DNA from: an uncultured Chloroflexia bacterium
GTDB taxonomy: Bacteria > Chloroflexota > Limnocylindria > Limnocylindrales > CSP1-4
NCBI GenBank assembly: GCA_963749705.1
Contig: CAVVNQ010000003.1
Location: 512,001-576,000, forward strand
Direction: 5' to 3'
Length of the DNA: 64,000 nt
The stretch's first letter is position 1. Each line of letters starts with the position of its first letter. Positions 34,703 through 53,523 of this stretch are shown in pieces. The notes below the pieces were generated by a model. That model was not told the origin of the DNA, did no database searches, and saw nothing but the letters and a program-made list of their open reading frames with translations. The position numbers were made by a program, and so were the translations under genes.

Positions 34703-36256
34703 TCAGCGGTGCTCGAGCTCGCGATCGAACTGGCGCTTGAGGAGCCACAGGAACACGATCCCGGCCAGGATGAAGGCGAGGACGATCACCATCGCCTGGC
34801 GTCGGAAGACGCTCTCGTCGATCTTGGCCGTGGCCAGCTCCTGGGCCGCCTCCGCCCGTGCCTTCGCATCGGTGGACAGCTCGGCGACGAGCTTGAGCTT
34901 CGTGGTGTGCACGGATGCCTGCGCCTGGATCAGGCTCGTCTTGGCGCCGACCAGCCCCACCTCGGCATCCGAGGTGATCATGCCCAGCCGGGAGGCCTCC
35001 TCGATCTTTGCGCTGGCATCGTCGTAGGCCTGCTCGGCCGAGGTGACGGCGGTCGAGATCCCCTGGATCTGGGCGTAGATCTGCGAGTCGGGGTGATGGC
35101 AGGTGTCGCACCGCCGATCCGGCTCGCTCGCGAACCGGTTGAGCTGGAGCCGCAGCTGGTGGGTCACCAGGTCGTGGCACGTCGAGCAGTCGTAGTCGGG
35201 CGGCGTCGGGTGGAAGAACAGCTGCGAGCTGGGCTGCGACACATCGTGCGTTCCATGGCACGTCCAGCACTGCGGTGCCGCGGCCTGGAGCTCGGAATGG
35301 CGGCTCTGCTGATACAGCTCCTCGGTCGCGGTATGGCACTTGCCGCACACCTGGACGACCGTCGCCGATGTCGGCGGCTTCGCATCATGCGAGCCGTGGC
35401 AGGACGCGCAGCTGGGAGCCCGGACGTCCTTGTTCTCGAGCAGCGCCACGCCGTGGACGCTCTTGGAGTAGATCTCGTACTGGTCGGTGGGGATGCCGTA
35501 GGGCTGCATCCGCGCGGGATCCGCGTGGCAGGACGCGCACAGGTCGGGGACGTTCAGGGCGTACACCTTCGCCGTCGGGTCGGAGACCTTCTTCACGTCG
35601 TGCGAGCCATGGCAGTCGATGCAGATCGCGACCCGCGTGTCGGCGGCCGTCGCGAGCCGCTGGCCGTGGACGCTCGACCAGTACTTGGCGTACTCATCCG
35701 TGGGCAGGCCCGTGCCGCGCATTCGTTCGACGTTCGCGTGGCAGCTGGCACACACGCCGACGGCGTCCATTCGATCGGGGGCGCCGACGAACCCGTTCGA
35801 GGCGTCCATGGCCACCGTGATCTGGTCGGAGCGGGGATCGCCGCCGTGGCAGTCCGCGCACGTCACGCCCGCGGCTGCGTGGGCGCTCGTCTGCCACGCG
35901 GCCGCGATGGCCGCCTGCTTGTCGTTGACTGCACTGTGGCAGTCGTAGCAGCCGTTGGCGCCGCCGCCCTCGGGATGGGCGATGATCGCCGGAACGGGCG
36001 GCGGCGAGACGAGCGGGAGCTCGGACGGCTCGGGTGTCGCCCCGAACAGGGGGTTCAGGGTCGCGGATGCGGATGGGGTCGGCGTCGCCGTATCCGACGA
36101 CGCTGCCGGGCTGGGACTCTCGGCCACCGCCGACCAGGCGAAGGCGAACCACAGGATCACGGCCGCGCCGATCACGGGCGCGACCCGCAGCACGCGGCGA
36201 ATCGTCGTGGCTCGGGCGGGGTTCGGCCGCATGGGTGTCTCAGCCGACATAGCCAC
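34703..36256 (-). CDS. Decaheme c-type cytochrome with N-terminal signal/TM and C-terminal TM anchor
   Basis: 10 CxxCH motifs (CYDCH, CADCH, CASCH x3, CIDCH, CGKCH, CWTCH, CSTCH, CDTCH), a helical C-terminal region and a TM segment; overlaps the cytochrome b stop. Confidence 0.9.
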   Translation of the reverse strand: MAMSAETPMRPNPARATTIRRVLRVAPVIGAAVILWFAFAWSAVAESPSPAASSDTATPTPSASATLNPLFGATPEPSELPLVSPPPVPAIIAHPEGGGANGCYDCHSAVNDKQAAIAAAWQTSAHAAAGVTCADCHGGDPRSDQITVAMDASNGFVGAPDRMDAVGVCASCHANVERMRGTGLPTDEYAKYWSSVHGQRLATAADTRVAICIDCHGSHDVKKVSDPTAKVYALNVPDLCASCHADPARMQPYGIPTDQYEIYSKSVHGVALLENKDVRAPSCASCHGSHDAKPPTSATVVQVCGKCHTATEELYQQSRHSELQAAAPQCWTCHGTHDVSQPSSQLFFHPTPPDYDCSTCHDLVTHQLRLQLNRFASEPDRRCDTCHHPDSQIYAQIQGISTAVTSAEQAYDDASAKIEEASRLGMITSDAEVGLVGAKTSLIQAQASVHTTKLKLVAELSTDAKARAEAAQELATAKIDESVFRRQAMVIVLAFILAGIVFLWLLKRQFDRELEHR

Positions 36257-51761: not shown

Positions 51762-53523
51762 GGGAGCTCTCTGCTTCGAGGTGGACGATGATCCTGGTCC
51801 CCTGCTTCGGGGCAGTATGCACAACAAGGGTGCCACCGATCTGTTCCACCCGCTCCCGCATGGACGCGAGCCCGAAGCCGCCGTCCATGGACCCGGCCAC
51901 GGTGCCCAGGTCGAAGCCGACGCCGTCGTCCTCGATCGTAAGCGTGGTCGCCGCGGTGGCGCACTCCATCCGGACCTGGACGTGGGTCGCCCGCGAGTGC
52001 TTGCGGGTGTTGGTCAGCGCCTCCTGCACGACGCGCAGCAGCTGGACCTCGCTGCGAGGCGTCAGCGAGGCGCGGGTGTCGCCATCGCAGGTGAGGGTGG
52101 CCGCGATCCCGGTCTGCCGGCTGTACTTGCGCAGGTACTCCCGCAGGGAGCCCTCGAGCCCCGTCTCCTCGCGAACGGTCTCGCGCAGCCCCAGGATCGC
52201 CTCGCGCACGTCCTGGTAGGCCTCGTCGGCGGTGTCGGCGATCTGCGACAGCTCGGCGGCCATGGTGTAGCTCGCCTCATCCTTGGCCCGGCCCTCGAGC
52301 GCGCGCAGCTGCAGGTGGATCACGCCCAGCACCTGGGCCAGGCTGTCGTGCAGCTCGCGTGCGATCCGGTCACGCTCGGCATGGATCGTCCACTGCTCCT
52401 CGGCTTCGTGGAGACGGGCCGTCCGAACGGCGATGGTCGCCATGTCGGCCAGTGCGCCCAGCAGCGTCCGCTCGGCCTCGTTGAACGCCTGCCCCGCGCG
52501 GACCACGCACAGCTCGCCCAGGATCCCGTCAGGCCCGCGCAGCGGTCGCGCCGCCCACGTCCGGTTCGCGTCGACCGCGAGCAGCGGGCACTCGGGGTTG
52601 CGCGGGTGGATGGCGCCCGTCGCGCGGTGGACGATCAGGCAGACGCTGCCGTCGTCCGCGATCGCCATGCGCCCCTGGCCGCCGGAAGACCCCGCACGGG
52701 TGGTGTCGGTGAGGCATACGACGGCGCGATCCGCACCCAGCAGCTCCCGCGCATGACCGGAGATCGCGTCGAGGACGTCGTGCAGGTCAGCCCGGCGAGT
52801 GAGCTGGAGCGCGACCTCGTACAGCGCGGCGCGCTCCCGTTCCCGGCGATGCAGATCCGCGACCGTGAGTGCGAGCTGCGCGGCGCCCGCGATCTCGCCC
52901 GTGATGTCGGCGAGCGCGGCGGGCGAGATGTCGGGATCGACCGCCGGATGGATCACGACGCGCAGGTGTCCGATCCGGTCGCGTCCCCGGATCAGCGGCA
53001 GGTCCAGGACGCCGGTGTCGAGCTCCGCCCGGCGCGTGAACGAGGGCGTGTCCTGCTCCGGGTCTGCCGGCGCATCGAGCAGCGGGGCGAGCCAGCTGAG
53101 GCCCGTCGCAAGCGGGTCCGGCCGGCGGATCGTCAACGGGTCGCCGCCCGGGGTCAGGATCGAGACCGTGCCGGCGATGGCGCCGGTCTGCGTGATGAGC
53201 CGGTCGAGCGCCTGCCCGAGCAGGTTCGGCAGGGCGAGGCCGCCCCGGACGGCGGAGCTCACCGCGTGGGTGACGGTGAGGTCCTTGTTCCGGGCCAGCA
53301 GCTGCTTCTGGGTGCGGTCGAGGTAGATCGAGACGAAGGTCGCAAAGATGACGATCGCGCCGCCCATGATCATCGCGGACAGCACGTGGGCGTCGTCGCC
53401 GGTGACCGTGCGATCGAGGAACAGGAACCGGACCACCTCGAAGGCCCAGACGAACACGACGGGCACGATCATCGTCGCCCACTTGAGGCGGTTGAGATCG
53501 CGTGCGCCCTGGGGTTCGCTCAT
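51718..53523 (-). CDS. Membrane sensor histidine kinase with two GAF-like domains (HisKA_3)
   Basis: Two TM segments, ERDRIARELHDSLAQ, QEALTN..KH, EDDGVGF and GFGLASMRER. Confidence 0.92.
   Translation of the reverse strand: MSEPQGARDLNRLKWATMIVPVVFVWAFEVVRFLFLDRTVTGDDAHVLSAMIMGGAIVIFATFVSIYLDRTQKQLLARNKDLTVTHAVSSAVRGGLALPNLLGQALDRLITQTGAIAGTVSILTPGGDPLTIRRPDPLATGLSWLAPLLDAPADPEQDTPSFTRRAELDTGVLDLPLIRGRDRIGHLRVVIHPAVDPDISPAALADITGEIAGAAQLALTVADLHRRERERAALYEVALQLTRRADLHDVLDAISGHARELLGADRAVVCLTDTTRAGSSGGQGRMAIADDGSVCLIVHRATGAIHPRNPECPLLAVDANRTWAARPLRGPDGILGELCVVRAGQAFNEAERTLLGALADMATIAVRTARLHEAEEQWTIHAERDRIARELHDSLAQVLGVIHLQLRALEGRAKDEASYTMAAELSQIADTADEAYQDVREAILGLRETVREETGLEGSLREYLRKYSRQTGIAATLTCDGDTRASLTPRSEVQLLRVVQEALTNTRKHSRATHVQVRMECATAATTLTIEDDGVGFDLGTVAGSMDGGFGLASMRERVEQIGGTLVVHTAPKQGTRIIVHLEAESSRGTHSAASQGAARR

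Follow-up and report, generated by a model that had tools for sequence, protein, structure and literature searches.

Background

According to the available part of PMC7911101, the Gram-positive bacteria Thermincola ferriacetica/potens carry a chain of cytochromes, ImdcA (Tfer_0070), PdcA, CwcA (Tfer_0075) and OcwA, in which CwcA is an OmcS-like hexahaem with 18% identity to OmcS that was modelled as a wall-crossing polymer. Here we describe a comparable locus from another phylum, found in a 64,000-nt stretch (the window; all coordinates are window positions) of contig CAVVNQ010000003.1 from an uncultured bacterium of the Chloroflexota (Limnocylindria; Limnocylindrales). It is a real, conserved and well-bounded block of genes, and a variant of the known porin-free, OmcS-like systems. 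By description it shares with Thermincola a monoderm host, the lack of a porin, and an inner-membrane decahaem together with an OmcS-like hexahaem, the Thermincola locus tags being five apart. It differs in uniting an ImcH-type site, a bc/decahaem arm, a stalked paralogue, System II maturation, TPR/NHL proteins and regulators in one block, and no OcwA-like match was seen. A first-pass annotation of this DNA had overstated its degree of novelty, since for Thermincola a porin-free path had already been proposed in which an inner-membrane decahaem leads to a wall wire resembling OmcS (PMC7911101).

A second close relation is OmcS of Geobacter sulfurreducens (PDB 6EF8/6NEF), likewise a secreted hexahaem, whose haem motifs 1–4 and spare His residues align with those of the hexahaem found here at about 19% identity (structural alignment). 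In Geobacter an NHL gene (GSU2505) adjoins omcS (PMC9070056, accessible portion), omcS and omcT are tandem paralogues, and the osc operon is concerned with folding, secretion and morphology (PMC13194489, likewise). A beta-propeller gene adjoins the hexahaem gene here as well, as in this omcS companion operon, and many relatives have tandem hexahaem paralogues. The OscH folding factor has a prolyl-isomerase domain, whereas a search confined to the 17 block proteins found no prolyl isomerase (rotamase domain). Geobacter is also a diderm, and the hexahaem described here differs further in its C-terminal tail and is a candidate, not an established, filament protein.

An OmcS homologue has been reported in a Coriobacteriales genome (PMC7399161, in its available part). 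The accessible portions of PMC7829351, PMC10954620 and 10.64898/2026.05.27.727921 contain no description of this cluster, and "Chloroflex" and "Chloroflexota" do not occur in those of the last two. Literature searches on Chloroflexota or Limnocylindria with OmcS, nanowires or electron transfer returned nothing on the cluster, with subscription journals and preprint supplements uncovered; the survey of Shen et al. (2025) may include the lineage.

Gene content and boundaries of the block

The block comprises 17 co-oriented, tightly spaced genes from 34703 to about 53523, with labels backed by Pfam/NCBIfam scans. Its features, all on the minus strand, are as follows (TM, transmembrane).

51718..53523, minus: membrane-bound GAF and HisKA_3 (plus HATPase) sensor kinase of the NarX/NarQ-like class, two TM helices (family scans)
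51051..51761, minus: NarL/LuxR-type response regulator (REC and GerE), start approximate (family scans)
50463..50888, minus: small, degenerate receiver-like protein, start approximate (weak NarP/NarL N-terminal matches, NarP E 2e-5; conserved in the loci)
49922..50452, minus: orphan Rieske 2Fe-2S protein with a twin-Arg-like leader and a possible lipobox Cys (Pfam, sequence)
49766..49833, minus: conserved operator-like element 5' of the TPR-NHL-hexahaem genes (conservation among loci)
48678..49661, minus: membrane-anchored TPR protein 1 (Pfam, topology)
47621..48676, minus: membrane-anchored NHL beta-propeller, analogue of GSU2505 (Pfam, topology)
46195..47535, minus: secreted hexahaem cytochrome (Paired_CXXCH), distant OmcS relative, mature chain from 47457 (motifs, profile comparison)
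46142..46178, minus: GC-rich stem-loop just past the hexahaem stop, no U tail (z -2.83)
44948..45970, minus: secreted cytochrome on a Pro/Ser/Thr stalk, three CxxCH and one CX3CH (motifs, alignment)
43548..44867, minus: TPR protein 2, cytoplasmic N-domain, one TM helix and outside TPR (CcmH/CycH-like), true start between 44714 and 44867 (Pfam, topology)
41978..43445, minus: ResB, System II maturation (Pfam)
41080..41964, minus: ResC/CcsB haem lyase (TIGR03144 above cut-off)
40455..41051, minus: ResA-like membrane-anchored thioredoxin, CPDC (family scans)
38663..40447, minus: NapC/NirT-family decahaem with an ImcH-type haem-1 site and one TM helix (Pfam, alignment)
38070..38642, minus: PCYCGC-family lipoprotein, the motif here being PCHCGC (family scans)
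37333..37805, minus: PetC-like Rieske subunit with a Tat anchor and low-potential-type box II, CPCHDGHF (family scans)
36240..37331, minus: unsplit cytochrome b with a PEWY motif (family scans)
34703..36256, minus: decahaem occupying the cytochrome c1 position, with a signal peptide and a TM anchor at the C-terminus (motifs, topology)

The 17 genes agree in identity, order and shared orientation with the first-pass annotation, and its count of 30 haem-binding motifs stands, as 29 CxxCH (hexahaem 6, stalked cytochrome 3, NapC-type decahaem 10, anchored decahaem 10) and the one CX3CH (CTLTCH) of the stalked protein. It had also reported no porin gene, and none of the 17 proteins matched a beta-barrel family. 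The extra small open reading frame that it listed was not recovered, as the intergenic gaps showed no conspicuous small frame with an ATG start on the minus strand. The frame at 37924–38328 was considered and rejected: it has no Pfam match, and its third-position GC content is 0.65, while the four genes measured for comparison lie at about 0.9.

Nine open frames in the 3.6-Mb genome have at least two CxxCH motifs; because four of these nine fall in the block, and because its order is conserved, it is not a chance grouping. The word "island" suits it as a clean presence/absence unit of about 34650–53717 but not otherwise, given a GC content the same as that of the host and no mobility genes among the 17. 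In two genomes without a hexahaem match (G059 and G018), 1.1 kb separates fdhD from the Fe-S gene, the two genes that flank the block here, and the interval holds an unrelated gene of the nuclease/phosphatase family (family checked for G059). The block sits within a formate dehydrogenase locus, with fdhD on one side and Fe-S/Fdh-like genes on the other. The latter are NuoEF-like and NuoG-like Fe-S genes and a formate dehydrogenase-like molybdopterin gene (53641–56981 and 61563–63500, minus strand); the dehydrogenase-like gene has one in-frame TGA, possibly selenocysteine. fdhD (33807–34660, plus strand) has a frameshift near 34433, possibly an assembly error, the other frame continuing to a normal-looking end. 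Further out, a SpoIID/LytB-like protein, recognized by eye (28262–30826, minus strand), has three near-identical repeats of about 120 residues with Pro/Thr/Ala linkers.

Conservation and distribution

Conservation was assessed on loci from the best 80 of 190 hexahaem matches, which are kin and not independent, and each count was restricted to loci with enough flanking DNA. TPR and NHL genes were present in 56 of 57 loci, the stalked cytochrome in 62 of 62, the kinase and regulator in 42 of 43, and ResB, ResC and the NapC-type gene downstream in 42 of 47, the five misses being rearranged or expanded loci. The proposed conservation of gene order is therefore upheld. Among four distant Chloroflexota loci, three keep TPR-NHL-hexahaem, two of these also carrying the kinase, regulator and NapC-type gene; the fourth is a short contig. 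In the close relative L003, which is 85–99% identical across the block, the TPR1-NHL-hexahaem-stalked group is only 59–71% identical, which suggests fast evolution or exchange of a surface-exposed module. Four other loci (L030, L037, L068 and L091) are enlarged clusters with extra multihaem frames of 6, 7 and 15 motifs that have no counterpart in the window.

Seventy of the 71 hexahaem loci bear Chloroflexota titles (11 Limnocylindrales/Limnocylindria, 2 Anaerolineaceae) and one is titled Actinomycetota, a phylum in which relatives are annotated as well. Eighteen of 24 genus-mates gave a hexahaem match, as against none of 16 genomes of the other family sampled from the order; a separate draw gave 32 of 151 family genomes, and 15 of 401 genomes were positive across the phylum. 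The anchored decahaem occurs in 23 of the 151 family genomes, 22 of which also carry the hexahaem. Since only 22 of the 32 hexahaem-bearing family genomes yielded the Rieske/cytochrome b/decahaem arm, this arm is an optional add-on, and the term "self-contained" in the first-pass annotation went too far.

The hexahaem cytochrome

The secreted hexahaem has six CxxCH motifs, and H5, H28, H120, H161, H331 and H345 are invariant in 72/72 hexahaems, making 12 invariant His in all; H28 and H331 are kept at ≥90% in a wider set. With six extra invariant His, there would be ligands enough for six bis-His haems. OmcS was the best match of the hexahaem profile (E 7.7e-8) and ranked second to MtrA in another profile comparison (E 6e-6), although it was not detected from the single sequence or from a narrow profile. 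H28 aligns with OmcS H16, and the relationship to OmcS proposed earlier holds on this evidence. The hexahaem profiles also weakly matched PDB 9YUQ (E 0.001–0.004), whose entry comprises 16 chains of a 218-residue "putative multiheme cytochrome c", possibly another cytochrome polymer.

The hexahaem start is preceded by a strong Shine-Dalgarno (SD) sequence, AAAGGAGGT, and the consensus heptamer stands before 54 of 90 homologues compared with 1.2% of random windows; SD sequences of the other cluster genes were checked in this window only. A stem-loop with z below -2 (20 shuffles each) follows 64 of 91 hexahaem genes, as against 2/62 NHL, 3/58 TPR1, 6/44 ResC and 11/57 stalked-cytochrome genes, and is probably a transcript stabiliser or partial terminator. 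Both signals would fit a transcript from which the hexahaem is expressed more strongly than the genes that follow it, as for a major subunit. Of 85 contigs from sediment metatranscriptome X1 that map to the block, 34 do so at ≥99% identity, and 30 of 30 bins have some depth, which is weak evidence of its expression; the contigs of X2, X3 and X6 come mostly from relatives. Four of 11 runs were mapped, DNA carry-over is possible, and depth cannot rank genes.

We consider it somewhat probable that the block encodes a regulated, porin-free conduit from menaquinol to the cell surface, built on an OmcS-like hexahaem polymer and carrying electrons outwards. A quinol-to-surface conduit of some kind is very probable, and that it flows outwards is likely. 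The same proteins might instead form a cell-bound conduit or store without long filaments, in which the hexahaem, as monomers or short stacks tethered within the wall space by the TPR/NHL proteins, passes electrons to soluble carriers such as humics, flavins or chelated iron, or buffers them through oxygen fluctuations. All components but the two secreted cytochromes are membrane-anchored, the similarity to OmcS is distant, the hexahaem has a C-terminal tail after haem 6, and a monoderm wall of 20–80 nm takes only 4–16 subunits (PMC7911101, available part). We nevertheless regard this as rather unlikely, in view of the invariant H28 at the OmcS position, the major-subunit expression signals of the gene, and the presence in 24 of 71 loci of two intact hexahaem genes, tandem paralogues like omcS/omcT.

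Quinol entry points and direction of flow

The NapC-type decahaem matches NrfH (PDB 2J7A) at E 3e-9, with a NapC/NirT fold at its N-terminus. All 32 of 32 sequences have CxxCHxM, K169 (equivalent to NrfH Lys82) and Q175 (at the position of NrfH Asp89); E125 lies at the position of ImcH E127, where Glu or Asp stands in 47/47, and Tyr or Phe occupies the ImcH Y188 position in 45/45. Lys and Gln thus match K173/Q179 of the haem-1 quinol-site pattern given for ImcH in the available part of 10.1101/2023.05.03.539133, where other homologues are described with 1–2 helices and 5–9 haems. The Geobacter form of ImcH, with three TM helices and seven haems, is not matched by the one helix and ten motifs found here, and the Met of the NrfH-type CxxCHxM is retained. 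The protein is by its residues ImcH-like and not ImcH proper, and an ImcH-type site (Glu, Lys, Gln) strengthens the earlier claim that it oxidises quinol.

In the cytochrome b/Rieske pair the Rieske boxes, the b-haem His pairs and PEWY are all present. With its c-type partner in the cytochrome c1 position, the set resembles other Rieske/cytochrome b complexes with a multihaem c subunit, such as those of the Geobacter Cbc clusters; matches to the NCBIfam ExtP/ExtQ models were below cut-off. It differs from these in that the partner has ten haems and a C-terminal anchor, and in being additional to a QcrC-type bc complex of the host. Box II of both Rieske proteins in the block is without the Ser/Tyr of high-potential centres, as is typical of low-potential, menaquinol-oxidising centres.

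The same hardware could run inwards, taking electrons from Fe(II), reduced humics or partner cells through the hexahaem to the quinone pool or to oxidases. NapC-family proteins can be reversible, and the host has two haem-copper oxidases and three cytochrome b genes. The uet cluster of Tenderiales, proposed for electron uptake, likewise joins multihaem cytochromes with NHL propellers, CcsA/CcsB and TPR proteins in a conserved order (10.1101/2022.05.06.490989, available part). That cluster belongs to a diderm and also has a beta-barrel (UetC), a prolyl isomerase, a cupredoxin and trihaem c7 proteins, and its beta-barrel and cupredoxin are absent from the block. As the ImcH-type site is known as a menaquinol oxidase and neither Rieske protein has the high-potential residues, we hold inward flow to be unlikely.

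A periplasm-facing multihaem enzyme, such as a nitrite, hydroxylamine or sulfur reductase, with the hexahaem or a decahaem as the catalytic part and fed by the quinol oxidases, is very improbable. NapC/NrfH-type proteins usually feed enzymes, the regulator is of the NarX/NarL class, and 56 residues of the anchored decahaem match NrfA weakly (E 7e-4). CxxCK, however, occurs in none of the four cytochromes. Invariant spare ligands cover both the hexahaem, with 6 His for 6 haems, and the anchored decahaem, with 9 His and 3 Met in 9/9 sequences, and no NrfA, hydroxylamine oxidoreductase (HAO) or octahaem reductase was among the hexahaem-profile matches.

The host and its respiratory background

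Searches of this 88%-complete genome did not find Omp85, MtrB/PioB, LpxC or OEP. None of 24 high-quality genus genomes gave an Omp85 match, and the single one among 40 genus genomes came from a bin that is 8% contaminated. The lineage has been described as lacking genes for outer-membrane synthesis and as mostly oxidase-positive (10.1101/2021.08.23.457424, available part). The locus is thereby set apart from the porin-cytochrome conduits (MtrCAB, Pcc, uet), having neither a beta-barrel in the block nor the outer-membrane families in the genome. That the host is instead a diderm with periplasmic cytochromes, its porin encoded elsewhere or missed in an incomplete assembly, is barely credible against these results, even with the one Omp85-positive bin. 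The monoderm-like host and the lack of a porin gene proposed in the first-pass annotation are consistent with the searches, and none of the three findings that it named as counting against it (a diderm host, an unconserved order, open-haem enzymes) occurred.

Elsewhere in the genome are two haem-copper oxidases, three cytochrome b genes, menD and a second ResB, and the formate dehydrogenase-like gene near the window end is its one molybdopterin enzyme. With a second ResB and another bc complex in the genome, the maturation set and bc-type complex of the block are extra copies, in keeping with the claim that the block has its own maturation genes. Two further multihaem clusters were noted at other loci. 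At L073:6106-10096 (G000 C7), hexahaem, Fe-S, NrfD/DsrP-like and pentahaem genes lie beside a NarL-type regulator in an alternative-complex-III/Dsr-like module, and at L072:8559-10866 (G000 C6) a seven-haem cytochrome adjoins a hydrogenase-type cytochrome b gene and molybdate ABC genes, possibly a further quinol oxidoreductase.

The stalked cytochrome

The stalked cytochrome is an octahaem in 44 loci and a tetrahaem, as in the window, in 10. In the alignment the tetrahaem form is the octahaem minus haems 2–5, with haem 1, the His that follows it and the last three haems retained. HHalign shows the first half of the octahaem to be a hexahaem paralogue (probability 99.1, E 7e-19, 173 columns), and LamG, prealbumin-like or PKD domains occur in three of nine relatives scanned. 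Because both ends are kept and the middle is dispensable, the protein may be an adaptor or cap. This would make a two-component nanowire in an oxygen-respiring single-membrane lineage, whose major subunit is the hexahaem and whose dedicated cap or tip adaptor is the stalked paralogue, an arrangement that we put forward as a doubtful possibility. As the paralogue keeps a haem-1 head and a CX3CH-ended tail and its relatives carry adhesion domains, it would direct the wire to its targets, be they minerals, organic matter or partner cells. We know of no cap subunit for OmcS-type wires, though no search aimed at one was made.

Regulation

The non-coding element before TPR1 contains an inverted GATAC...GTATC, a TCTAYCC-N5-CGGATRG box and spaced heptamer-like repeats, and had no match in Rfam. 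The box is present at 54 of 58 loci and has a single occurrence in the genome. Random windows, taken from the loci that also supplied the pattern and including true sites, contain it in 3.9% of cases. The element is a candidate operator of the co-encoded NarL-type regulator, which together with the kinase accords with the claim that the block carries its own regulatory genes. The half-site TGTATCG, with four copies in the block compared with 0.46 expected, also stands before TPR2 (44922–44928) and the kinase (53536–53542) on the minus strand, which hints at further regulated promoters.

Proposed mechanism and significance

In the outward conduit that we favour, menaquinol would be oxidised by the ImcH-like decahaem and, where present, by the Rieske/cytochrome b/decahaem complex, in which the anchored decahaem would stand in for cytochrome c1. 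The decahaems would hand electrons to the abundant hexahaem, which may stack head to tail through H28 and so cross the wall, with the outward-facing, membrane-anchored TPR/NHL proteins as possible chaperones or scaffolds of assembly; the stalked paralogue would be a minor component, serving as cap or adaptor. Under oxygen shortage the kinase and regulator would activate the genes through the operator, and the oxygen-respiring host could then get rid of its electrons on Fe(III)/Mn(IV) oxides, on humic quinones or on partner cells.

The host is a surprising one for an OmcS-like system, yet the Thermincola precedent exists, and the wire is here a proposal. The block unites a subunit, its paralogue, and chaperone-like and maturation genes with no outer-membrane step, which makes it a compact system for studying which features cause multihaem cytochromes to polymerise, and for testing whether a monoderm wall is really crossed by proteins of the OmcS type; CwcA itself could not be kept soluble (PMC7911101, available part). 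If the proposal is true, a widespread uncultured lineage of soil and sediment Chloroflexota would join the short list of cytochrome-wire organisms, and could couple carbon oxidation to the reduction of iron, manganese or humics where oxygen comes and goes.

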